From Clostridiales bacterium (GTDB taxonomy: Bacteria; Bacillota; Clostridia; Oscillospirales; Oscillospiraceae), in the NCBI GenBank assembly GCA_022768185.1, contig JALEMS010000015.1:1-25429 (forward strand): a DNA stretch of 25,429 nt, in the 5' to 3' direction. The first letter of the stretch is position 1, and every line of letters begins with the position of its first letter. A program made the position numbers and the translations under genes. Of the stretch, positions 11,737-22,538 are shown piece by piece. The notes beneath the pieces were generated by a model that had not been told where the DNA came from, did not search any database, and saw nothing but the letters and a program-made list of their open reading frames with translations.

Positions 11737-11765
11737 CCGTCTGTTTCCGGGCTGCCGCAGGCTGT

Positions 11766-11808
11766 GGGAGCGTGACGCTCCCACAGCCTGCTTCTTTTTA
11801 AATACCGC
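11766..11808 (+). terminator. Rho-independent terminator after degV
   Basis: 16-bp stem gcaggctgtgggagcg/cgctcccacagcctgc, loop tga, then TTCTTTTT. Confidence 0.8.
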
Positions 11809-11876
11809 TGTCGCACTGCGTCGAAACGTGGTATGATGAAGAAAACCGCCGGAACACGGCGGCTCAGGAGGCAGCC

Positions 11877-13121
11877 ATGGCCTACAGTGAGTTGATTAAG
11901 GATTACGAGCGCATCCGAGACTATATGCGCTCGTTTTTCGTCTACGGCTTCCGCAGCCGCGAGGAACACGACGCCAAAAGCGCCCGCAGCTACGACAACG
12001 AACGCCGCCGCATCGAAAGCTGGCTCGGCGACTGCCTCTGCTCCCGGCAGGACGCCGGGGGAAAGCGCGTCTTTCTCTGCGTGGACAGCCGCGCCGTATC
12101 CCGCAACCCGCTTTACCGGTCGTTCCGCACCAAAAGCTTTACCGACCGGGACATCACGCTGCACTTTTACCTGCTCGATCTGCTCTCCGGCGGCGAGGCG
12201 CTCACCGTCGGCGAGATCGTCGGGCGCATCGAAACGGACTATCTCTCCCAGTTTCCCGCAGATTATCCCCTCGACGAATCCACCGTGCGCAAGAAGCTCA
12301 GGGAATATGAAGCGCTGGGTCTGCTGCGCAGTGAAAGGACCGGACGCACGGTACGCTACCGGCTGGCGCAGTCCGCCGTCCGGCAGGAAACGTGGCTGGA
12401 CGCCGCCGCCTTTTTCTCGGAGGAAGCTCCGGTCGGCGTGATCGGCTCGTTTTTCCTTGACCGGTTTGCGCATACGCCGGATTATTTCGGCTTCAAGCAC
12501 CATTATCTGCTGCATGCGCTTGACAGCGAGCCGGCCTGCGCGCTGCTGACGGCCATGCGCGAACGGCGCACGGTCGAGCTGCAGGTGCAGAGCCTGCGCA
12601 CCGGCGCGCGGATGCAGCGCACCGTCTTTCCCCTGCGCCTGTACGTCAGCACGCAAACCGGGCGGCAATATCTGCTCGGCTGGCACTACCGCAGCCGGCG
12701 CATGCTCTTTTTCCGGCTCGACGCCGTCCGTCGTGTGACGCCCGGCGCACCGGAGCCGGACGCCGCCCGCTTTCAGGACGCCTGCGCGCGCTTTCAGCAG
12801 CATCTGTGGGGCGTCTCCGCCGGCTCGGAGCGCGGCACGGCGCACATCGAGCTGACCGTCCGCGCCGGCGAGGATGAGGCGCACATTCCCCGCCGTCTGC
12901 AGCGCGAGCGCCGCTGCGGCACGGTCGAGCGGATCGGCCCGGACGTCTGGCGCTTCACAGCGGATGTGTACGACGCCATGGAAATGCTGCCCTGGCTGCG
13001 CACGTTCCTGGGGCGCATCGTGTCGCTCGAATGCAGCGACACGCGCGTCACCGACGCCTTTTATGCCGATCTGGCCGAAATGGCCGCGCTGTACGGAGGG
13101 AACGACGATGCTGTTCAGTGA
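11877..13121 (+). CDS. WYL-domain transcriptional regulator, paralog 1. It has a winged HTH, a WYL domain and a C-terminal WCX-like region.
   Basis: wHTH: LTVGEIVGRI…STVRKKLREYEALGLL. WYL core: RQYLLGWHYRSRRMLFFRLDAVRRV. AGGAGG lies ahead of ATG 11877. An extended -10, TGGTATGAT, is at 11829-11837. Confidence 0.75.
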   Translation: MAYSELIKDYERIRDYMRSFFVYGFRSREEHDAKSARSYDNERRRIESWLGDCLCSRQDAGGKRVFLCVDSRAVSRNPLYRSFRTKSFTDRDITLHFYLLDLLSGGEALTVGEIVGRIETDYLSQFPADYPLDESTVRKKLREYEALGLLRSERTGRTVRYRLAQSAVRQETWLDAAAFFSEEAPVGVIGSFFLDRFAHTPDYFGFKHHYLLHALDSEPACALLTAMRERRTVELQVQSLRTGARMQRTVFPLRLYVSTQTGRQYLLGWHYRSRRMLFFRLDAVRRVTPGAPEPDAARFQDACARFQQHLWGVSAGSERGTAHIELTVRAGEDEAHIPRRLQRERRCGTVERIGPDVWRFTADVYDAMEMLPWLRTFLGRIVSLECSDTRVTDAFYADLAEMAALYGGNDDAVQ

Positions 13122-14043
13122 GCTTTACGGCTGCTATTTCCACACGGTCTCGGCCGTGCTGGCCGAGGCGGTGCAGCACACGCTGACCGGCGAGCGGCTG
13201 CGCGCGCTCGTGCAGCGGCACGCCTTCGCCGAAAGCGGGCTGACCATCCCCGCCGCGCTGCAGACGCGCTGGCCGCTGCTGAAGCCGGATCTCTCCACGC
13301 CGCTGCGCCGCGCGCCCTCCCTGCCGCTGACGCTGCTGGAGCAGCGCTGGCTGAAAACGCTGCTGCAGGATCCCCGCATTGCGCTGTTTGCGCCCGATCC
13401 GACGGGGCTGGAGGACGTCGAGCCGCTGTTCGACCTGTCCGATGTGGTGTATTTCGACCGGTATCTCGACGGCGACCCCTACACGGATCCGGCCTACATC
13501 GCCGTTTTCCGCCGGCTGCTGTGCGCCGTTCAGACGCACCGGCGGGTACAGCTGCTGCGCACCGTGCGCTCCGGCGCCGTACGCAGCGCCGAATGCCTGC
13601 CGCTGCGGCTGGAGTATTCGGCCAAGGACGACAAATTCCGCCTGCTGACCGCCGGAAACCGCAGCTGCCGCACCGTCAATCTGGCCAACATCCGCAGCTG
13701 CCGCCTGCTCGAGCCGGTCGATCCGTCCGGCCTCCGCGAGCCGGCGCGCCGCCTGCGCACGCTGACCTTCCGGCTGACGGACGAGCGCAACGCCCTGGAG
13801 CGGGCGCTGCTGCATTTTTCCCATTTTGAAAAGCAGACCGTCCGGCTGGACGGGCGGCACTACGAGGTGACGCTGCGCTATGAAAAGGAGGACGAGACGG
13901 AGCTGCTGATCCGTGTGCTCTCGTTCGGTCCGATGCTGCGCGTCACCGCGCCGGAGGACTTCGTTGCCCTGGTACGTACGCGCCTGCAGCGCCAGCTGCA
14001 GCTGACCGCAGTCCCCTCCCCGCCACGTGAGCCGCCGGAATAA
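13108..14043 (+). CDS. WYL-domain protein, paralog 2. It has a WYL domain and a C-terminal WCX-like region, and is translationally coupled to paralog 1.
   Basis: WYL core: DKFRLLTAGNRSCRTVNLANIRSCRLL. Its N-terminus is related to paralog 1 (FSELYGCYFHTV versus YSELIKDYERI). GGAGGG lies ahead of ATG 13108, which overlaps the WYL-1 stop by 14 nt. The longer track ORF from 12874 is out-of-frame antisense-style noise. Confidence 0.7.
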   Translation: MLFSELYGCYFHTVSAVLAEAVQHTLTGERLRALVQRHAFAESGLTIPAALQTRWPLLKPDLSTPLRRAPSLPLTLLEQRWLKTLLQDPRIALFAPDPTGLEDVEPLFDLSDVVYFDRYLDGDPYTDPAYIAVFRRLLCAVQTHRRVQLLRTVRSGAVRSAECLPLRLEYSAKDDKFRLLTAGNRSCRTVNLANIRSCRLLEPVDPSGLREPARRLRTLTFRLTDERNALERALLHFSHFEKQTVRLDGRHYEVTLRYEKEDETELLIRVLSFGPMLRVTAPEDFVALVRTRLQRQLQLTAVPSPPREPPE

Positions 14044-14064: not shown

Positions 14065-14098
14065 GCTGCGGATTCAACGTGAGTTCGCAGCTTTTTTT
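14065..14098 (+). terminator. Rho-independent terminator after the WYL pair
   Basis: Stem gctgcg/cgcagc with a 15-nt loop, followed by TTTTTTT. Confidence 0.6.
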
Positions 14099-14127
14099 CC
14101 GTGATTTCCCTGCCGCTCTCTGATAGG

Positions 14128-14312
14128 ATGGGCCCGTAAGCTCCCCTGAGCGTGTGGCTGAACGGCTCACCGCGGTGCACCGGGACATTCCGACGTGTAT
14201 GCCGGCGGGCTTACGGAAACGATCGCCTGTCAAGCGATGGGGTCAAACGCCCCTCCAACGTGGGTTCGAATCCCACCCGCGCCGCCCGCGCGGCCAGTGG
14301 TTTGGTTTTGGA
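14128..14312 (+). ncRNA. Candidate tRNA-like ncRNA or leader element. It has an anticodon-like stem-loop (atcgc/CTGTCAA/gcgat, anticodon position GUC). A long variable hairpin follows (gggg/tcaaacg/cccc). A consensus T-arm follows (GTGGG-TTCGAAT-CCCAC). The 3' strand of the T-arm overlaps an intrinsic terminator. There is no acceptor-stem partner.
   Basis: Extended -10 TGATAGGAT at 14120-14128. T-arm at 14260-14276. Terminator stem ccac-ccgcgc/gcgcgg-gtgg at 14273-14300, followed by TTTGGTTTTGG. A canonical tRNA cannot be folded because no sequence complementary to ccgcgcc is present upstream. Confidence 0.35.
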
Positions 14313-14552
14313 AGCTCCGCTTCCGCACAAGAAAAGCGCCCCTCCCCGCGCCGCGCGGCCAGCGTCCCCGGCTTTTGCTGCGCCGTACGGCAATGCCGCC
14401 GGGCCTTGTCTGCCGCGGATACCGTGCAGGCCCGCCGCCGGCCAGAGGCCCCGCCTTCCGCCGCCGAGCCGGCCGTGCTCAAGCGTCCAGCCGCCCGGCG
14501 CGCATCAGGGGAGCCGTGCATGACATTTTTTACCTTTCCGGAGGACAGAGAT

Positions 14553-15659
14553 ATGAAGCCCGTTACCATCCATGAAAATCAGCGCGGCCTGCTCTTCAAG
14601 GACGGCCGCTTCCTTCGCCCGCTCGCCCCGGGCCGCCACCGACTGCCCGGCCGGCAGCTGGCCGAGGTACTGCCGCTGGAGGACGCGGTGCGCTCCGACC
14701 GCTGCACGCTGGACGCCCTGCTGGAAAACGCGGAGCTGGCCGCACAGGTCACCGTCGTGGAGGTCGGCGACCGGCAGCTGGCGCTCTGCTTCCTGGACGG
14801 CAAGTTCTCCTGCGCGCTGTGCAAGGGGAAATACGCCTTCTGGAACACCCGGCAGACGCGCACCTGGCGCCTGGTGGACATCTCCAGCCCCACCGTCGCC
14901 GACGACGTGCCGACCTACCTGTTCCGGCTGCTGCCGCCGAGCCTCTACCTCCGCGCGGAGGTAGCCGAGCACCAGCGGGCGCGCCTGTGCTACGACCGGC
15001 GGTTCGTCCGCCTGCTTGAGCCGGGCGTGTACTACTTCTGGAAAAACGACGTGAAGGTGGAGCTGACGTACGTCGACACCCGTCTGACGCAGGAGACCAT
15101 CACCGGCCAGGAGCTGCTGACGCTGGATAAGGTGAGCGTACGTCTGAGCTTCGTGTGCAGCTACCGCATTGCAGACTGCCTGCGCGTGCTCACCGAGATC
15201 GACGATTGGGCCGAGCAGCTGCACGTGGCCGCGCAGCTGGCCATGCGTGAGTTCGTCGGCCGCCGCCGGCTCGACGAGCTGCTGGAGAGCCGCGAGGAGA
15301 TCTCCGCCTTCGTGCTGGCCCGGCTGCGGGAGAAAGCCCCCGCGCTGTTTCTTGAGATCGTCGACGGCGGCGTGCGCGACATCATCCTGCCCGGCGAGAT
15401 CCGCGAGATCATGAACACCGTTCTGATTGCCGAGAAGCGCGCGCAGGCCTCCGTCATCACCCGCCGCGAGGAGGTGGCCTCCACACGCTCGCTGCTCAAC
15501 ACCGCAAAGCTGATGGACGAAAACCGGACGCTCCGTCGGCTCAAGGAGCTGGAGTATATCGAGCGCATCTGCGGCAGCGTCGGCAGCATCAGCCTCAGCA
15601 GCTCCGGCGACCTGCTCGGACAGCTGACGGCTCTGCTGGGCGGCTCGTCCGCCTCGTGA
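14553..15659 (+). CDS. SPFH/band-7 (stomatin/prohibitin/flotillin/HflKC-like) domain protein, with no N-terminal TM segment, so apparently cytoplasmic
   Basis: The SPFH core, VSVRLSFVCSYRI…EQLHVAAQLAMREFVG…EISAFVLARLREKA, plus a coiled-coil C-terminal region. GGAGGA lies ahead of ATG 14553. The long track ORF from 14154 is an upstream extension with no start support. Confidence 0.7.
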   Translation: MKPVTIHENQRGLLFKDGRFLRPLAPGRHRLPGRQLAEVLPLEDAVRSDRCTLDALLENAELAAQVTVVEVGDRQLALCFLDGKFSCALCKGKYAFWNTRQTRTWRLVDISSPTVADDVPTYLFRLLPPSLYLRAEVAEHQRARLCYDRRFVRLLEPGVYYFWKNDVKVELTYVDTRLTQETITGQELLTLDKVSVRLSFVCSYRIADCLRVLTEIDDWAEQLHVAAQLAMREFVGRRRLDELLESREEISAFVLARLREKAPALFLEIVDGGVRDIILPGEIREIMNTVLIAEKRAQASVITRREEVASTRSLLNTAKLMDENRTLRRLKELEYIERICGSVGSISLSSSGDLLGQLTALLGGSSAS

Positions 15660-15696: not shown

Positions 15697-16899
15697 ATGA
15701 TCGAAGTGACCGGGGCATACAACACGGCCAGATGCTTCTGCCGGACGCTGGAGGACTCGGCGCGCCGGCAGATCCAGGCCGTCTGCGACCAGCCGGCCTT
15801 TGCCGGCAGCAAGATCCGCATCATGCCGGACGTCCACGCCGGCATGGGCTGCACCATCGGCACCACCATGACCGTCGCCGACAAGCTCGTGCCCGGCATG
15901 GTGGGCGTGGACATCGGCTGCGGCATGGAAACCGTGCGTCTGGAGGAAAAGACGCTCGACCTTGACCGGCTCGACCGCGTCATCCGCGCATGCATTCCCG
16001 CCGGCCGGGAGATCCGCAGCACGCCGCACCCCCTCTGCGAACAGATCGACCTGACCGCGCTGCGCTGCGCCGACCGGGTGAAGCTTGACCGCGCCCGCCG
16101 CAGCATCGGCACGCTCGGCGGCGGCAATCATTTTATTGAGATCGACCGCGGCGACGACGGCAGCCTCTATCTCGTCGTTCACTCCGGCAGCCGCCACCTC
16201 GGCAAGGAGGCCGCGACGCTCTATCAGGACGAGGGGCGGCGCGCCATGTGGGGCGGCGCGCGGCATCAGATCGAGGAGACCATCGCCGCGCTGAAGGCCG
16301 AAGGCCGCGTTCAGGAGATCCAGCCGACGGTCTCCCGCCTCCGGCGGGAGCACAAGCTGGACATTCCCCGCGACCTGGCCTATGTGGAGGGCCGGCTGTT
16401 CGACGATTACCTGCACGACATGAAGCTCATCCAGCGCTTTGCCGCACTCAACCGCAAGGCCATAACGGACGTCCTCCTCACACAGCTCGGCCTCACCCCC
16501 GCCGAGGAATTCACCACCGTCCACAACTACATCGACACCGACGCGATGATCCTGCGCAAGGGCAGCGTGTCGGCCCGCGCCGGGGAAAAGCTGCTCATCC
16601 CCATCAACATGCGCGACGGCAGCCTCATCTGCATCGGCCGCGGCAACGAGGACTGGAACTGCTCGGCCCCGCACGGCGCCGGCCGCCTGATGAGCCGGGC
16701 GGAAGCCTTCCGCAGCCTGACGATGGACGAATTCCGCGCCGAGATGGCAGGAATTTTCTCCACGTGCGTCTCACAGGAGACGCTTGACGAGTCGCCCATG
16801 GCCTACAAGCGCATGGACGAGATCGTCGGCGAGCTTGGTCCCACCGCGGAGATCGTTGCGCGCATTCTGCCCATCTACAATTTCAAGGCGGCGGATTAA
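15697..16899 (+). CDS. rtcB: RNA-splicing ligase RtcB (3'-phosphate / 2',3'-cyclic phosphate RNA ligase)
   Basis: Metal-ligand and GTP-binding motifs: MPDVHAGMGCTIG, GGGNHFIEI and SAPHGAGR. GGGAGG lies 9 nt upstream of ATG 15697. Confidence 0.9.
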   Translation: MIEVTGAYNTARCFCRTLEDSARRQIQAVCDQPAFAGSKIRIMPDVHAGMGCTIGTTMTVADKLVPGMVGVDIGCGMETVRLEEKTLDLDRLDRVIRACIPAGREIRSTPHPLCEQIDLTALRCADRVKLDRARRSIGTLGGGNHFIEIDRGDDGSLYLVVHSGSRHLGKEAATLYQDEGRRAMWGGARHQIEETIAALKAEGRVQEIQPTVSRLRREHKLDIPRDLAYVEGRLFDDYLHDMKLIQRFAALNRKAITDVLLTQLGLTPAEEFTTVHNYIDTDAMILRKGSVSARAGEKLLIPINMRDGSLICIGRGNEDWNCSAPHGAGRLMSRAEAFRSLTMDEFRAEMAGIFSTCVSQETLDESPMAYKRMDEIVGELGPTAEIVARILPIYNFKAAD

Positions 16900-16940
16900 A
16901 AGGAAAAACCGCCGCCTTGCCGAAACCGGAGGAAAACGTC

Positions 16941-18221
16941 ATGCTCAACCTGCCCCCACAGGCCGTCGAGGCACTGCGCGCGCTGGAGGCCGCCGGCTTT
17001 GAGGCCTTTGTCGTCGGCGGCGCGATGCGCGACGGCGTCCGGGGCGTGCAGCCGAAGGACTGGGATCTTGCCACGAATGCCACGCCCGAGCAGGCGGCCG
17101 CCGTCTTCACAGGCCGGCACATCATCGAAACCGGCCTCAGGCACGGCACCGTCACCGTCGTGCTCGATCATATGCCGCTGGAGATCACGACCTATCGCGG
17201 CGACGCGCCGACCCTGCAGGCCGACCTGGCCCGCCGGGACTTCACCTTCAACGCCATGGCCTATCATCCCCGCACCGGCCTGCTCGACCCCATGGGAGGC
17301 CGGGCCGATCTGGCGCGGGGGCTTGTCCGCTGCGTCGGCGAGGCCGACCGCCGCTTTGCGGAGGACGGGCTGCGTATTCTGCGCGCGCTGCGCTTTGCCG
17401 CCGTGCTGGGCCTGCGCGTGGAGGACAAAACGGCCGCCGCCATGCGCCGGAACCTGCCGCTGCTGCCGCAGGCCGCGCCCGAACGCATCCGCGCCGAGCT
17501 GACCGGACTGCTGTGCGGCCGGGACGCGGGCCGGGTGCTGGCGGAGAACGCAGACATTGCAGCCGCCGTGCTGCCGGAGCTGGCCCCGCTTTTCGGCTTT
17601 GCGCAGCACAACGCGCACCACGACCGGGACGTCTGGCAGCACACGCTCGCCGTCGTCGACGCAGCCGCGCCCGAGCCGGTGCTGCGATGGGCCGCGCTGC
17701 TGCACGACCTCGGAAAGCCCGCCTGCTTCTCGCTTGGCCCGGACGGCGCCGGCCACTTTTACGGGCATGCCGAACTCAGCGCGAAGCTGGCCGGAGCCAT
17801 CCTCACGCGTCTGCATTCCGACACCGCCGGACGCGCGCAGATTGTCGCGCTCGTCCGCTGGCACGATGTGCCCATCGTGCCGGAGCGGCGGGCCATGCGC
17901 CGCCTGCTGCGCCGTCTGGGCGAGGACACGGTGCGCCGTCTTCTGGCGCTGCGCATCGCTGACACGCGCGGGCAGGCCCCCGCCTGTCAGGGCCGGCTCG
18001 AAACGCTCCGGCAGGCCGGGGCCGTCGTCGACACGCTGGTGGCCGAGGCCGCCTGCTTTTCGCGGAAGGATCTGGCCGTGACCGGGCGCGATCTGCTCCC
18101 GCTCGGCCTGACCGGGCATGAGATCGGCGCGGCGCTTGAGCGCTGCCTCACCGCCGTGGTGGAAGAGGCCGTGCCGAACGAACGCGCGGCGCTGCTGGAC
18201 TATGTGCGCCGCGGCGGCTGA
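16941..18221 (+). CDS. cca: CCA-adding enzyme / tRNA nucleotidyltransferase, with PolyA-polymerase-type head and HD domain
   Basis: GGAMRD, RDFTFNAMA and EDGLRILRALRFAA motifs, plus the HD motif LHDLGKP. GGAGGA lies 7 nt upstream of ATG 16941. The track start at 16917 is TTG without an RBS. There is no terminator between rtcB and cca. Confidence 0.85.
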   Translation: MLNLPPQAVEALRALEAAGFEAFVVGGAMRDGVRGVQPKDWDLATNATPEQAAAVFTGRHIIETGLRHGTVTVVLDHMPLEITTYRGDAPTLQADLARRDFTFNAMAYHPRTGLLDPMGGRADLARGLVRCVGEADRRFAEDGLRILRALRFAAVLGLRVEDKTAAAMRRNLPLLPQAAPERIRAELTGLLCGRDAGRVLAENADIAAAVLPELAPLFGFAQHNAHHDRDVWQHTLAVVDAAAPEPVLRWAALLHDLGKPACFSLGPDGAGHFYGHAELSAKLAGAILTRLHSDTAGRAQIVALVRWHDVPIVPERRAMRRLLRRLGEDTVRRLLALRIADTRGQAPACQGRLETLRQAGAVVDTLVAEAACFSRKDLAVTGRDLLPLGLTGHEIGAALERCLTAVVEEAVPNERAALLDYVRRGG

Positions 18222-18490: not shown

Positions 18491-20611
18491 TTATTCCGTT
18501 TTCTGCTGCCGGGCACGCAGCTCGTCGATGTGTGCAGCCGCCTGCGGGTAATGCGCGCGCAGGCGGGCCTCCAGCTCCTCGCGGTGTGCAACCAGATGCG
18601 CCAGCAGCTCCGGATGCTCACGCCGGAGCTGCTCCGTCACACGCGCACGCCGCCGCTCCAGCCGCGCCAGCACCTCATCCTCAGGCAGCTCCATCAGCCC
18701 GGACAGCTCCTGCAGGTGCTGCTCCAGCCGCGCCAGCAGCGCGTCGCGGTCGATCTCGCCGCGCCAGTGTATGCTGTGCAGCAGCGTCTCCAGCGCGTCG
18801 CCGCGGCGGGCCTGCTCGGTGTGCGCCAGCGTGTTCAGCAGCTCCCCGGCCAGCGCCTCCATGCGCTGCTCGGCGTCCTCACCGTAGGCCCATTCAAATT
18901 CCTGCCGCTGGCGCAGCAGCTCGGCGGCCCGGCTGCGCAGCGCCTCGGGCAGCATCTGCTCGTCGGCTGCGCCGCAGTCGAGCAGCGCGCCGTACAGCGT
19001 GCGGCGCACCGCTCCCTCGTCGATCAGCTCGCCCGCGCCGAAGCGGCGCAGCTCGTCGTTGACCTGTCCGATGTGCTCGGTGAGGTAGAAGCGGACGCCG
19101 CGCCCCTTCAGCTTCCGGTAAAGCAGCAGCAGCCGGTCGCAGGCCGAGATATCCACGCCCACAATGCCGCTGGCGTCAACGATCACGGCACGGGTGTCCG
19201 GCCCGACGCTGCGCTCAATGTCCTGCTGAAACAGCGTGATGTTGGCGAAAAACAGGCTGCCGCTGAATCGGTAGAGCACCACGCCGTCGATGGCATGCGC
19301 CTCGCTCATCCGATCGATGGGATACACGCCGGGCCGCCCGCTGATGACGCCGAGGAAGTCCCGCTGCGGCTGCGAGGCGCGCTGAATCACGTCGGCAAAG
19401 GACAGCAGCGCGCCGATGATGACGCCGTGGATCGTCCCCAGCACCAGCACGCCGAGAAACGCCGCCATGAAAATGGCAAACTCCCGCCGATTGGCACGCA
19501 GCAGCCGGCGCGCTACGTCAAACTCCACCGCGCCCAGCAGTGCGGAAATGACGATGGCCGTCAGAACCGGCACCGGCAAAAACCGGATGAATCCCGTGAA
19601 AAACAGCAGCACCGCCGCCATCAAAGCCGCCGCGACCACCGACACCAGCTGTGTCCGGCCCCGGAACTGCTCGTTCATCGACGAGCGGGAGACGCTGCCG
19701 TTGACCGGGCAGCAGCCGACCAGGCAGGCGGCAAGATTTGCCAGCGAGAAGGTGAGAATCTCGCGATTGTCGCTGAGCGCAACGTCGTGCCGCATGGCGA
19801 AGCTGCTCTCAGCCAGCAGCGTTTCGGCCATGATGACCACCGCGATGGACAGACTTGACCCCAGTCCCTGCACCGGCGAGAGCGCGCGCAGATCCGGCAG
19901 GCGCAGCGCCGGCAGGCCCGGCTCGACCGCCGCCAGGCACGCCACGCCGCGCTCTGCCAGATGGAACCCGGCCGACGCCGCCGCGCCCACCGCCATCATA
20001 ACGATCGCCATCGGGAACTTCGGCAGCAGCTTTTTGCCTGTCAGCAGAATGGCCAGCGCAGCCAGTCCCAGCGCCAGAGACAGCGGATGCACGCTGCGGC
20101 AGGCGGAAAGCAGATGCTCCGCCAGCTCAAACAGTTCTCCCGTTCCGGCCGTTCCGCCCATCAGCTTGGGCAGCTGCATCAGAATGATCGTGCAGCAGAT
20201 GCCGCTGATGAAGCCGCCCATCACCGGCGCAGAAATGTAGTTGAGCGTCTTACCGGCACGCAGCAGCGAAAACGCCAGCAGCCACACGCCCGTGTAAAAC
20301 GTCAGCACCGGCACCAGACGCTGCGCCTCGGGCGAGCCGAGCGTCACGCCCATTCCGGCCAGCACGCTGCCGACCATCGCTGCCGGCGCGGCGTCCACGC
20401 CGAACATGAACTGCGGGGACGTGGAAAACAGCGCAAACACCAAAACCGGCAGCACCGAGCCGTACAGCCCGTACACCGCCGGCAGGCCCGCAATCTGTGC
20501 ATAGCCCATGGAAATGGGGATGGACACCGCCGCAATGACGATGCCGGAAAGCAGATCGCCCCGCAGCCATTCTCGCCGGTAGCCGGACATGGTTTTCAAA
20601 ATGTGTTTCAT
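18491..20611 (-). CDS. SulP-family (SLC26-like) anion transporter with a STAS domain, plus an unusual Arg/Glu-rich helical C-terminal extension of about 150 aa
   Basis: MKHILKTMSGYRREWLRGDLLSGIVIAAVSIPISMGYAQIAGLP is a typical SulP N-terminus. STAS: VLYRFSGSLFFANI…VIVDASGIVGVD. GGAGAA lies ahead of ATG 20611. The track ORF from 20794 extends into a region with no RBS. Confidence 0.8.
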   Translation of the reverse strand: MKHILKTMSGYRREWLRGDLLSGIVIAAVSIPISMGYAQIAGLPAVYGLYGSVLPVLVFALFSTSPQFMFGVDAAPAAMVGSVLAGMGVTLGSPEAQRLVPVLTFYTGVWLLAFSLLRAGKTLNYISAPVMGGFISGICCTIILMQLPKLMGGTAGTGELFELAEHLLSACRSVHPLSLALGLAALAILLTGKKLLPKFPMAIVMMAVGAAASAGFHLAERGVACLAAVEPGLPALRLPDLRALSPVQGLGSSLSIAVVIMAETLLAESSFAMRHDVALSDNREILTFSLANLAACLVGCCPVNGSVSRSSMNEQFRGRTQLVSVVAAALMAAVLLFFTGFIRFLPVPVLTAIVISALLGAVEFDVARRLLRANRREFAIFMAAFLGVLVLGTIHGVIIGALLSFADVIQRASQPQRDFLGVISGRPGVYPIDRMSEAHAIDGVVLYRFSGSLFFANITLFQQDIERSVGPDTRAVIVDASGIVGVDISACDRLLLLYRKLKGRGVRFYLTEHIGQVNDELRRFGAGELIDEGAVRRTLYGALLDCGAADEQMLPEALRSRAAELLRQRQEFEWAYGEDAEQRMEALAGELLNTLAHTEQARRGDALETLLHSIHWRGEIDRDALLARLEQHLQELSGLMELPEDEVLARLERRRARVTEQLRREHPELLAHLVAHREELEARLRAHYPQAAAHIDELRARQQKTE

Positions 20612-20650
20612 GCAGTTCTCCGTCCGATAAAAATTGTGCTCTGTCTGTTT

Positions 20651-20679
20651 AATATAGCACAAAACGATCGGTCTGCCAA
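20651..20679 (-). promoter_or_regulatory. Sigma-A-type promoter for the SulP gene
   Basis: The minus strand reads TTGGCA, a 17-nt spacer, then TGcTATATT (extended -10). Confidence 0.5.
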
Positions 20680-20712
20680 CCCGGGCGGCCTCCGGTTCTC
20701 CCTGAAAGCGGC

Positions 20713-20750
20713 AAACAGGCCTGCCGCAAGCTTGCTGCAGGCCTGTTTTG
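20713..20750. terminator. Palindromic intrinsic terminator, A-tract / stem / T-tract
   Basis: caggcctgc-cgcaagcttgct-gcaggcctg followed by TTTTG. It probably ends a minus-strand transcript from the small ORF at 20919-21086. Confidence 0.55.
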
Positions 20751-20918
20751 TGCTGTTGCGGTGATATATGTGTCCGGATCGGGCGCGCAGGCATCTTCCC
20801 CTTTTGACGATTTCCCCTTCAATTGTGCGAAGATGCGCAGGGCCTTGGGCATTGATAAGCCGGCCCGAAAACGAGTTCCCGGCCGAAGCGGTGCGCGTTC
20901 CGCGCTGTTTGATCCGGA

Positions 20919-21086
20919 TCACGGATGATTCCGACTGCAAATACTCCTTTGTGTTGCAATCGTAAGCAGGGTATCTCCAAGCTGCGTCAGCGCAGCGCCC
21001 AGCAGATTGATCTCATCCTCGGTCAGCTTACAGGCAAGCGCATTGGCAACGGCAGTGATGGAAGCTGTCAATTCACATGAATTCAC
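20919..21086 (-). CDS. Unannotated small ORF, 55 aa (MNSCELTASITAVANALACKLTEDEINLLGAALTQLGDTLLTIATQRSICSRNHP). Hypothetical helical protein.
   Basis: GTG start with GGAGG 11 nt upstream. Good codon usage. The six-frame track cannot show an ORF of this length. No family assignment is possible by eye. Confidence 0.35.
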   Translation of the reverse strand: MNSCELTASITAVANALACKLTEDEINLLGAALTQLGDTLLTIATQRSICSRNHP

Positions 21087-21175
21087 AAAACAAGCACCTC
21101 CACACTATTATATGAACACAGGTCCGGAGCGTGTATGCGCCTTGTTCTGCCGGCCACGATCAGAAAATCGGCAGA

Positions 21176-21862
21176 TCAATTTTTGTCGCGGCTCTGTTCA
21201 TAGAGAACGAATTTCAGATTTCGGTCGCAGACCGCCAGAAAAACGTCCTTCGCAGAGCTGATGTGGCGCTGCTTCAGCTGCTTGTCCAGCCAGGTCAAAT
21301 CCAGTCCCATGCGCTTCAGGTTGTCCTCCAGGATCCGGCCGTCCATAATCAATTCCGTGAACAGCAATTCCTGCTCGGGGGCCAGATTCAGGTCGTTCGG
21401 CGTAGCCGGCCGTTGACTGCTTACCGGAAGAATCGTAAGCTTCCCATTGTACTCGAAAATGGCCGTTTGTATGCTCGTCAGGTCAAAATAGCCCTGCTGT
21501 CTGCACATGACCATAAATTCACTGAGATCCAGCTTGGCCTTTTTCATATTTTCACGGTACAGCTTTCCGTGATCCATGAGGATGGTCGGTGTGCCATTGA
21601 GATACTTGCGCGATCTCGGCGCTTTATTGGAAATGACACTCAGCAGCAGCGTAATTGCGCCGTAGATCACCATGGCGGTAAGCGGTTTCCAGGGCTGCTC
21701 CAGTTCTGTAGCCATTTCAGCTGCGATCGAACCGATGGTGATCCCGGTGATATAATCGAAAAAATCCAGCTGAGCGATTTGCTTGTGCCCGACAAATTTG
21801 GCCACGATGAACAATACGACAAACGACCCCAATGTGGTCAGGCAAAGTATCAAAAAACTCAT
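21176..21862 (-). CDS. DUF421 (YetF-like) membrane protein
   Basis: Two N-terminal TM helices, then a soluble domain matching the YetF/YdfS/YkjA pattern. AAGGGGAG lies 6 nt upstream of ATG 21862. An alternative start is at 21868. Confidence 0.65.
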   Translation of the reverse strand: MSFLILCLTTLGSFVVLFIVAKFVGHKQIAQLDFFDYITGITIGSIAAEMATELEQPWKPLTAMVIYGAITLLLSVISNKAPRSRKYLNGTPTILMDHGKLYRENMKKAKLDLSEFMVMCRQQGYFDLTSIQTAIFEYNGKLTILPVSSQRPATPNDLNLAPEQELLFTELIMDGRILEDNLKRMGLDLTWLDKQLKQRHISSAKDVFLAVCDRNLKFVLYEQSRDKN

Positions 21863-22000
21863 ATGCATCTCCCCTTTCTCTCTATTCTGACCGGAAACCG
21901 GGCAAGCATTCACGCCCGACCGCACCGATTCCAAAAAAACGGTTCACCGGAATGCAGCGGGTTTCATAATGTGGATCAGGTACAGAAAGGAGTGTATCAC

Positions 22001-22441
22001 ATGGAATCTGATTTCCCTGTCCGGGATCGCTGCAGCCATTGTAAAACCGATCACGGCCCCAGGCCGTTTGTTGCCGGGATCACGCAGCTGGCTCAGCAGA
22101 ACCGGAATTTTCGCACAGCTATTTGGACAGGATGTCACTTGCAGATGACTCTCATGAGTATCCCCCTCTGTGGTGAAATAGGTTGGGAGATGCATCCGGA
22201 CACAGATCAGCTGATCCGTGTAGAAGCAGGAAAAGCAACGCTCCGCATGGGAGCTTGTAAGGAAAAGCCGGACGTCACGCGGCAGCTCGGCACCGGAGAC
22301 GCCGTCTTTGTGCCGGGCGGCACATGGCACCAGGTTGTCAACAGCGGGAACGGCCCGCTGAAGCTTTCGTCTGTCTATGCGCCGCCCCAGCATCCCAGAG
22401 GAACCATCCATTGCACAAAAGATGATGAAGCGCATGGATGA
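22001..22441 (+). CDS. Cupin-domain protein, about 146 aa
   Basis: Cupin motifs: GEIGWEMHPDTDQLIRVEAG and GDAVFVPGGTWHQVVNSGNGPL. AAAGGAG lies 9 nt upstream of ATG 22001. The long track ORF from 21131 is antisense to the DUF421 gene. Confidence 0.65.
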   Translation: MESDFPVRDRCSHCKTDHGPRPFVAGITQLAQQNRNFRTAIWTGCHLQMTLMSIPLCGEIGWEMHPDTDQLIRVEAGKATLRMGACKEKPDVTRQLGTGDAVFVPGGTWHQVVNSGNGPLKLSSVYAPPQHPRGTIHCTKDDEAHG

Positions 22442-22538
22442 TCTCTGAAAAACATACCGGCGTATCCCCCGGCCGCTCTCCGGCATAGTATGGTCTGAGT
22501 CCCCCTGAAAATAACGGGACTCAGAGAGGAAGACTCCT

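Follow-up and report, generated by a model that had tools for sequence, protein, structure and literature searches.

Two overlapping genes at positions 11877 to 14043 of a 25,429-nucleotide stretch of DNA from a Clostridiales bacterium (GenBank assembly GCA_022768185.1, contig JALEMS010000015.1; hereafter, the window) raise the question of whether they encode a single two-subunit regulator and, if so, what that regulator controls. The first and second open reading frames (ORF1 and ORF2) encode WYL-domain proteins, and their neighbors in the window are degV on one side and genes for a Band-7 protein and an RtcB RNA ligase on the other. In the original prediction, made without database searches, the pair was regarded as a heterodimeric sensor of the WYL type, comparable to PafBC, in which one subunit binds DNA and which is wired to RNA repair. 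This reading was supported wherever it could be tested by comparison. We consider it fairly probable that ORF1 and ORF2 form a ligand-gated two-subunit WYL regulator that recognizes a 24-nucleotide motif and activates the RNA-repair operon.

Organization and conservation of the gene pair

ORF1 (subunit 1, 414 amino acids) occupies positions 11877 to 13121, and ORF2 (subunit 2, 311 amino acids) runs from an ATG at 13108 to 14043, as read from the ORF list and the sequence; all features of the window described below from degV terminator to CCA enzyme lie on the forward strand. The stop codon of ORF1 (13119 to 13121) is located inside ORF2, and the overlap is exactly 14 nucleotides (ATGCTGTTCAGTGA). 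A Shine-Dalgarno sequence for ORF2, GGAGGG (13096 to 13101), lies within the YGG codons of ORF1 and is conserved in relatives, the ORF2 start being preceded at 7 to 9 nucleotides by GGAGG across the related loci. Such translational coupling would give both subunits in roughly equal amounts.

Using an ORF2 profile search, we collected 80 related species-level genome loci, on which the comparisons below are based. ORF1 was directly upstream of ORF2 in all 79 loci where its position could be assessed. The predicted tandem arrangement with a 14-nucleotide overlap was thereby confirmed, both in the sequence itself and in the relatives. Among 80 sources (79 related loci and the window), the ORF1 stop overlapped the ORF2 start in 77, by 14 nucleotides in 50 sources, 11 in 18, 4 in 3, and 1 in 6, and short gaps separated the genes in the other 3. 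The overlapping pairs use two different relative frames, and a pair identical in sequence to that of the window is present in independent assemblies.

Homologs are numerous: 4,220 and 6,293 matches were obtained for the two proteins among the scored candidates, and an exhaustive profile search with the ORF2 family yielded 1,866 clusters (E value ≤1e-3; clustering at 50% identity). The relatives belong to the Oscillospiraceae and other Clostridia; in Oscillibacter valericigenes, for example, the pair corresponds to the neighboring genes OBV_05080 and OBV_05090. The chromosome of this species (AP012044) carries two copies of the pair, at about 0.47 Mb and about 3.02 Mb (loci L008 and L053), one beside a Band-7/RtcB operon and the other beside a DUF2828/RtcB operon. 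The motifs of the two copies, of the kind described below, are nearly the same, and cross-talk between them is likely.

Upstream of the pair, an intrinsic terminator after degV (11757 to 11800; a 16-bp stem followed by a T run) was found by a terminator scan and by reading of the sequence. This strong terminator (11757 to 11791 plus the T run) shows that the pair begins its own transcription unit. A possible extended -10 element of its own promoter, TGGTATGAT (11829 to 11837), was picked out by eye in the sequence; when we aligned the window with its relatives, conservation of the TGGTATGAT region was shared with the closest relative only.

Domain architecture of the two subunits

We characterized both proteins by domain scans and by AlphaFold models, which were built from family alignments of 40 sequences per protein and compared with the PDB using Foldseek. 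As predicted, both carry a WYL core and a WCX-like C terminus, which was confirmed by Pfam, PADLOC, and AlphaFold/Foldseek. The WYL domain of ORF1 was detected by Pfam (PF13280; residues 223 to 288; E value, 2.4e-8) and by the PADLOC WYL model (residues 222 to 385; E value, 1.3e-14). The same PADLOC model detected that of ORF2 (residues 130 to 295; E value, 7e-9), for which the sole Pfam match was WCX (residues 234 to 295; 23.5 bits, slightly below the cutoff of 23.9). ORF2 has F177-R178-L179 instead of W-Y-L.

The ORF1 model had a predicted local distance difference test (pLDDT) score of 64 overall and of 74 to 93 within its domains, with a winged HTH at about residues 90 to 163, WYL at residues 231 to 292, and WCX at residues 322 to 406. 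Its top PDB match was PafB (9fnd_X; E value, 1e-10), followed by DriD, PafC, CapW, and BrxR. The ORF2 model (pLDDT, 80) gave 32 significant matches, all of them WYL proteins (E values, 1e-9 to 3e-4), with PafC at the top (9fnd_Y; 1e-9) and DriD, PafBC, CapW, BrxR, and WYL1 behind it. Both models align over their full length to PafB, PafC, and DriD. A profile comparison with PafB/PafC and DriD structures had been proposed as a check on the original prediction; WYL/WCX homology was found, with PafB, PafC, and DriD among the best PDB matches.

ORF1 is composed of an N-terminal domain (residues 1 to 88, including KSARSYDNERRRIESWL), an ArsR-type winged helix-turn-helix (wHTH) domain at about residues 90 to 165, linker helices, WYL (about 217 to 292), and WCX (about 322 to 406). 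The assignment of the second of these follows from a weak match to PaaX/ArsR-type helix-turn-helix (HTH) models (residues 116 to 170) and from Foldseek matches of residues ~90 to 165 of the model to ArsR/SmtB winged HTH domains. ORF2 consists of a conserved non-HTH helical N-terminal region (residues 1 to 128), WYL (about 129 to 205), and WCX (about 216 to 300). Its residues 1 to 128 had no Pfam match even at an E value of ≤1, and the model of this region contains helices only, with no beta wing; therefore, a recognizable wHTH is present in ORF1 only, in accord with the original prediction.

The recognition helix of ORF1, DESTVRKKLKEY, and the arginine-rich segment of its N-terminal domain, KSARSYDNERRRIESWL, are almost invariant across the related loci. 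This parallels the invariance of the motif described below and fits a fixed target, although it is no proof of one.

The residues that would contact a ligand are also partly retained. R248, Y265, and R280 of ORF1 align with R181, Y196, and R211 of PafB, whose roles in ligand binding have been described (PMC11804915), and Y265 and R280 are invariant in the ORF1 family. The ORF2 family keeps R194-x-R196 in the loop corresponding to the ligand-binding loop of PafB/PafC. Judged from these residues, both WYL domains look competent for nucleic-acid binding. The A-R-x-R-S-C loop of the ORF2 family is the one carrying the ligand-binding arginines in PafB and PafC.

Residues 1 to 88 of ORF1 (11877 to 12140) are its most conserved part, have no family assignment, and are modeled with low confidence. 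The invariant positions of this domain include Y39, D40, E42, and R43 to R45 in SARSYDNERRRIESWLG, and it may be a second nucleic-acid-binding element. Two ORF1 homologs of unusual length, P0130 (473 amino acids) and P0138 (618 amino acids), have two or three tandem copies of the winged-HTH segment. We had considered them as ORF1-ORF2 fusions, and this was ruled out since their extra length is repeated wHTH.

Resemblance between the subunits and their natural fusions

The sequence likeness of ORF1 and ORF2 is confined to the first half of WYL (BLASTP identity of 36% over 53 amino acids; E value, 0.006), and hhalign gave E values of 0.005 to 0.009. The description of the two as paralogs thus stands at the superfamily level; beyond that it does not, since the likeness is restricted to the early part of WYL. 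Related N termini had also been claimed. Only the first 10 residues are alike (MAYSELIKDY versus MLFSELYGCY), and hhalign of the N-terminal subalignments, profile against profile, gave E values of 0.3 to 0.5, by which N-terminal homology was rejected.

An association of the two proteins is suggested by natural fusions. The ORF2-family profile search detected single-chain proteins of 685 to 799 amino acids with the ORF2 part in the C-terminal half, that is, an ORF1-linker-ORF2 order with a linker of 30 to 50 amino acids. In the fusion P0323, residues 1 to 411 are 49% identical to ORF1 (E value, 6e-132) and residues 449 to 763 are 43% identical to ORF2 (E value, 1e-76). At least four clusters, each less than 50% identical to the others, contain fusions of 763 to 799 amino acids; two of them comprise 7 and 11 proteins drawn from independent assemblies (NCBI, JGI, ENA, and Logan). 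A parallel is known from PafB and PafC, which are separate in mycobacteria and fused in Arthrobacter (PMC6789036). The natural fusions support a heteromeric unit; among the indirect evidence available, they point most strongly to ORF1 and ORF2 acting as one complex.

A near-invariant motif and its promoter

When the stretch separating ORF2 from Band_7 was aligned across the five closest loci, an invariant block, GAGTTCGCAaCTTTTTTTCCGTGA, emerged. It belongs to a near-invariant 24-nucleotide motif (consensus, gaGTTCGCAACTTTTTTTCCrTGA), present in the window as GAGTTCGCAGCTTTTTTTCCGTGA at 14081 to 14104, which we propose to be an operator or upstream promoter element on the basis of its conservation and of a reverse association. 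The motif is single copy in the window, where none is expected by chance. It was found in 72 of 84 nonredundant sources, always beside the pair and oriented to the repair operon, and is located either 10 to 30 nucleotides after the ORF2 stop or about 85 to 120 nucleotides upstream of ORF1 on the opposite strand.

A promoter follows the motif at a fixed distance. Over 83 motif instances, a conserved tggTAtnaT lies 24 nucleotides past the core TTCGCAACTTTTTTTCC; in the window, this extended -10 element (TGATAGGAT) is found at 14121 to 14129, 24 nucleotides 3' of the motif core. The -35 position is weak, with GTGATT in the window and (g/a)TGAtt across the loci. Counted from the inferred start, the motif covers about -33 to -57, the weak -35 and the extended -10 elements lying behind it, and the promoter looks like a sigma-A type with an extended -10. 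It heads an operon comprising a tRNA-like RNA and the genes for the Band-7 protein, RtcB, and a CCA enzyme.

The terminator scan also detected a terminator-like hairpin followed by T7 (14065 to 14098), which ends the transcript of the pair, and the 3' arm and T run of this hairpin belong to the motif. Only in co-directional loci does the 3' end of ORF2 supply the complementary arm, which divergent loci lack; therefore, the conserved object is a DNA element and not a terminator.

The association was also examined in reverse, with 120 metagenome contigs chosen solely by an exact match to 22 nucleotides of the motif. The pair was adjacent in 94 of them (71 co-directional and 23 divergent) and slightly farther away in 4 more, and 9 had no room upstream. 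In 74 contigs the downstream sequence extended for 1.5 kb or more, and 71 of these carried Band-7, DUF2828, RtcB, or RlaP on the motif strand. Taken on this comparative evidence, the pair most likely controls the motif promoter and the RtcB operon.

Two loci, L094 (Ga0126342_10013892) and L089, carry the exact 22-nucleotide motif with no WYL pair or repair gene detected within 3.5 to 10 kb. Upstream of ORF1 in the window, the motif scan found no copy at ≤3 mismatches, by which autoregulation through an operator copy 5' of ORF1 was ruled out there; alignment of the region upstream of ORF1 in co-directional relatives revealed no conserved block or operator-like conservation.

Association with RNA-repair genes

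In the window, the motif promoter is followed by genes for an SPFH/Band-7 protein (14520 to 15659, starting at ATG 14520 or ATG 14553; Pfam Band_7 E value, 2.5e-24, and gene calls in identical contigs), an RtcB RNA ligase (15697 to 16899; Pfam RtcB E value, 4.7e-59, and NCBIfam matches), and a CCA-adding tRNA nucleotidyltransferase with an HD domain (16917 to 18221; Pfam PolyA_pol, HD, and tRNA_NucTran2_2). The last matched the NCBIfam CCA tRNA nucleotidyltransferase model with an E value of 3e-60, yet below the model cutoff (204 versus 290 bits).

We clustered the neighbors in the 80 loci into families and scanned representatives with Pfam. RNA-repair genes adjoin the pair in 60 loci: downstream and co-directional in 33, upstream and divergent in 26, and on both sides in 1. 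The families were DUF2828 plus DUF7788 (vWA containing) in 48 loci, RtcB in 44, RlaP ("RNA repair pathway DNA polymerase beta family") in 15, and Band_7 in 6. The other 20 loci have no repair gene, about half of them with too little flank. All of the closest relatives of the window (65 to 100% identity) have the pair, then a gap of 480 to 520 nucleotides, and then Band_7. With repair genes adjoining the pair in most loci and a near-invariant promoter motif shared among them, the predicted wiring to RNA repair was supported.

Proposed mechanism and alternatives

In the model that we propose, ORF1 and ORF2 would be the two subunits of one heteromeric WYL transcription factor, with ORF1 as the sole DNA-reading head via its ArsR-type wHTH, possibly aided by the arginine-rich N-terminal domain. 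ORF1 would recognize GAGTTCGCAACTTTTTTTCCrTGA directly 5' of the weak -35 and extended -10 elements, and the single HTH of the complex would sit on GTTCGCAAC in the 14075 to 14135 duplex. ORF2 would add a second WYL-WCX module, and its helical head may contact RNA polymerase or another partner in the manner of PafC: in PafBC, only the HTH of PafB reads DNA, and that of PafC contacts sigma region 4 (PMC8635444). Besides, one single-stranded DNA (ssDNA) strand threads a tunnel across both WYL domains of PafBC (PMC11804915), and a single-stranded nucleic acid signaling RNA damage may bind across both WYL domains here.

The most plausible ligand would be RNA fragments, perhaps with 2',3'-cyclic phosphate ends, with ssDNA as the alternative. 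An RNA-damage ligand is favored because RtcR is induced by damaged tRNA fragments ending in cyclic phosphate (PMC7790460) and because WYL transcription factors have been predicted to sense cyclic-ended RNA and to regulate RNA-repair pathways (PMC9503650); the RNA ligand is thus proposed by analogy with RtcR. Ligand binding would switch the complex and turn the repair operon on. Activation is favored over derepression because the site abuts a weak -35. The domain content, the conserved gene coupling, the natural fusions, the genomic link to repair genes, and the motif with its promoter geometry were shown directly; heterodimerization, which protein reads the motif, what the ligand is, and whether the operon is activated or repressed are inferred from them.

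Several observations weigh against this model. The sequence resemblance of ORF1 and ORF2 is weak. At position 194 of ORF2 (13687 to 13689), in the A-R-x-R-S-C WYL loop, the Arg of 38 of 40 relatives is replaced by Asn in the window. About 8 loci in which both flanks extend for 5 kb or more have no repair gene beside the pair. Solved WYL regulators bind ssDNA (PafBC, DriD, and CapW) or cyclic di-GMP, not RNA. The position of the motif fits an activator, but a repressor could also occlude the -35/UP region; the extended -10 promoter may, moreover, be active on its own. The surroundings of the fused relatives P0354, P0407, and P0323 (L209 to L212) differ as well: their neighbors are an extracytoplasmic function (ECF) sigma factor, a Zorya-like cluster (ZorA-like/OmpA/VWA/TerD), and a Macro-domain gene. 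No RtcB was found near these three fused relatives, and the motif is absent at the P0354 locus (L209), the sole fusion locus checked for it. The fusions, then, support a single functional unit and give no support to the RNA-repair link, and the ORF1-ORF2 module may have been recruited to other systems, possibly defense.

Of the competing explanations, the one that survives best retains the WYL complex and the operator and reverses the sign: a repressor like BrxR or CapW would sit on the -35/UP region of a promoter otherwise self-sufficient by its extended -10 and be released by the ligand. We regard this as rather unlikely. In its favor, a TG-extended -10 such as that of this promoter can function even where the -35 is poor, both proteins have BrxR and CapW among their structural matches, and WYL factors of conflict systems have been described as negative regulators (PMC9503650). 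However, the structures matched best are those of activators, PafB/PafC and DriD, and the site stops just 5' of the -35 without covering the -10 or the start. A subunit that has no HTH and bears a conserved novel head is, furthermore, easier to understand if it contacts RNA polymerase, in the way of the PafC HTH (PMC8635444).

A more elaborate proposal, which we consider improbable, combines a second, independently evolved heteromeric WYL family with induction by damage to the system's own tRNA-like RNA. The HTH of ORF2 would have been replaced by a new effector head, the damaged RNA could be, for example, a decoy that an anticodon nuclease has cut and that bears a 2',3'-cyclic phosphate, and the locus would constitute a self-contained bait-sensor-repair circuit against tRNA attack.

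Alternatively, an ORF1 homodimer alone could be the transcription factor, with ORF2 as an accessory protein that binds damaged RNA or the tRNA-like or structured RNAs of the operon (compare WYL1 of Cas13d) or as a titrator of the ligand. ORF2 has no DNA-binding domain, the Sm-like fold of WYL and the ferredoxin-like fold of WCX are typical of RNA-binding proteins (PMC6789036), WYL1 (6oaw) is among the PDB matches, and structured RNAs are encoded directly downstream. This explanation is nevertheless very doubtful, given that several lineages have ORF1-ORF2 fusions, that the overlap and coupling are conserved, and that the single nonpalindromic operator in divergent loci fits one reading head and not a symmetric homodimer; besides, WCX domains mediate the dimerization of PafBC (PMC11804915).

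Finally, the possibility that a sequencing frameshift has split one gene into the two ORFs, or that they are decaying pseudogenes, has nothing in its favor beyond the existence of fused homologs and was checked and excluded as hardly credible: the two-gene layout with ORF2's own ATG and Shine-Dalgarno sequence recurs in 80 species-level loci with four different overlap lengths and two relative frames, independent assemblies carry the identical sequence, true fusions have a linker of 30 to 50 amino acids without overlap, and both proteins are complete, strongly constrained WYL-WCX units, with many invariant residues and a mean column identity of 66% and 73% for the two family alignments.

Comparison with known systems

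The two-subunit activator proposed here shares several traits with PafBC (PDB 6SJ9, 7P5X, and 9FND), namely, adjacent overlapping genes, two WYL-WCX proteins, fused forms elsewhere, one DNA-reading subunit (by our model, in the case of the pair), and partly kept basic and aromatic key residues of WYL. However, PafC has an HTH that contacts sigma region 4, whereas ORF2 has no HTH, and ORF1 has an ArsR-type HTH behind an extra 88-amino-acid domain. The promoter elements are also different: PafBC uses a -26 element (the GTC-containing RecA-NDp, with no -35 and with sigma adaptation), whereas the 24-nucleotide motif lies at about -33 to -57. Furthermore, PafBC belongs to Actinobacteria, the pup-proteasome locus, and DNA repair, whereas the pair belongs to Clostridia and RtcB RNA repair. 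Sequence similarity to PafB, PafC, and PafBC in the PDB is remote (E values of 8.6e-4 to 0.4, about 1e-3 in the WYL core). Because ORF2 has no HTH, the promoter element and its position, the phylum, and the neighborhood are different, and the similarity is remote, the pair stands outside the PafBC family.

DriD of Caulobacter, SiwR, CapW, and BrxR have the same HTH-WYL-WCX fold as ORF1 and the WYL-WCX fold of ORF2, and they are ligand-gated regulators beside the genes that they control, as we propose for the pair. Unlike the pair, with its unlike subunits and single asymmetric site, they are homodimers on palindromic or repeated sites; their known ligands are ssDNA, and their targets are DNA-damage or phage-defense genes. 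WYL1 of Cas13d (PDB 6OAW), a nonclassical WYL protein that binds single-stranded RNA, was a weaker structural match of both ORFs, but it is a homodimer with a ribbon-helix-helix domain, acts on Cas13d, and is not encoded by a coupled gene pair.

A parallel in function may be RtcR of Proteobacteria (rtcBA and rsr-yrlBA-rtcBA). Like the pair in our model, it is a dedicated regulator beside an RtcB operon encoding tRNA-like RNAs, and one of its domains senses oligonucleotides; WYL is considered a sensor analogous to CARF (PMC4012209, PMC7790460). RtcR, however, has a CARF-AAA+-HTH architecture and activates a sigma-54 promoter, whereas domain scans found neither CARF nor AAA+ in ORF1 or ORF2, and the promoter here is of the extended -10 type. 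By analogy, the pair may be viewed as a clostridial functional counterpart of RtcR, not a relative.

RtcB/Band-7/b7a-tRNA and RtcB/Ro-like/Y-RNA systems have been predicted by Burroughs and Aravind in 2016 (as summarized in bioRxiv 10.1101/312249). Going by that summary, the window operon matches the first of these systems, with a tRNA-like RNA (subthreshold), Band-7, and RtcB in adjacent genes on one strand. The DUF2828 (vWA) loci, which are most of the relatives, correspond, by the same summary, to the second, with Y-RNA-like or tRNA-like modules.

PafBC and its orthologs were the only heterodimeric WYL proteins reported as of 2025 (Schilling et al., PMC11804915). Our literature search, which covered sources other than Burroughs and Aravind 2016, found no published description of the pair or the motif. 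If our model is true, the pair, which lies beside the motif and the RtcB operon in hundreds of gut Clostridia, would be a second heterodimeric WYL family and would represent an extreme division of labor in which one subunit has lost the HTH altogether. It would also provide a candidate regulator and a sharply defined 24-nucleotide cis element for RtcB RNA repair in Firmicutes. Such a system would open to test the induction of bacterial RNA repair outside the RtcR paradigm and the roles of tRNA-like, Y-like, and Band-7-associated RNAs.

Structured RNAs and other features downstream of the pair

The region at 14100 to 14550 had been assigned as a promoter region. A promoter was indeed found at its start, with the -10 at 14121 to 14129, but most of the region corresponds to conserved structured noncoding RNA. 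A search with Rfam at gathering thresholds gave no match anywhere in the window, and a relaxed search added only the subthreshold tRNA and partial YrlA matches given below.

The first is a conserved 5' RNA domain (14150 to 14203) with helices P1 (14150 to 14157 paired with 14167 to 14173) and P2 (14174 to 14180 paired with 14195 to 14203), both of which covary, as judged from the alignment and RNAalifold pair counts. It is followed by a degenerate tRNA-like element (14199 to 14283), in which the anticodon-like loop reads CUGUCAA, the variable arm is long, and the T-arm, GGGUUCGAAUCCC, is perfect. This element scored 24.1 bits, short of the gathering score of 29 set for tRNA in Rfam, gave a partial match to YrlA, was found by ARAGORN at a relaxed threshold only, and showed covariation in the T-arm. 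A hairpin (14284 to 14300) adjoins it, and a U-rich tract follows. The RNA at 14150 to 14300 resembles YrlA or the predicted "b7a-tRNA," and the same operon encodes a CCA-adding enzyme.

In relatives, one to three tRNA-like genes with scores of 30 to 50 bits occupy the same place, whereas genuine tRNAs in those loci score 52 to 69 bits; the anticodons of the former are odd or varied. Beside the pair, as in L010, L018, L021, L025, L028, L044, L047, L053, L054, L068, and L075, the tRNA-like genes often form arrays of two or three, with "Arg(UCG)" and "Met(CAU)" as recurring anticodon loops. Some tRNA-like genes have impossible anticodon loops of 2 or 4 nucleotides or rare anticodons (UAU, AAU, and ACU).

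Just 5' of the Band-7 gene, covariation revealed a long conserved hairpin RNA with internal loops (14397 to 14500; about 105 nucleotides), whose conserved loops are GGAUACCG and CUCAAG. Across five sequences, 90% of its cells are paired, versus about 41% in slid controls, and compensatory changes occur at 17 pairs, versus 1 to 4 in the controls. The hairpin at 14397 to 14500 matched no Rfam family. In a census by a regular expression so strict that it missed the window itself, all occurrences of the hairpin were in Band-7-type loci, and none was accompanied by Y-like modules.

Loci of the DUF2828 type, including L011 to L016, L018, L022, L033, L037, L051, L053, L058, and others, carry repeated RNA modules 30 to 300 nucleotides past the motif, of the form AAAGCRCnnACAGCAA, then an insert or a tRNA-like domain, and then GYGCTTTG. 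These modules recall the stems of Y RNAs and may act as partners to the vWA protein DUF2828/DUF7788.

Farther downstream in the window, the segment at 20500 to 22500 has a G+C content of 0.50 to 0.54, against 0.65 to 0.72 around it. It contains a cupin-domain ORF, with a vWA/DUF11 ORF adjacent, and may have been horizontally acquired.

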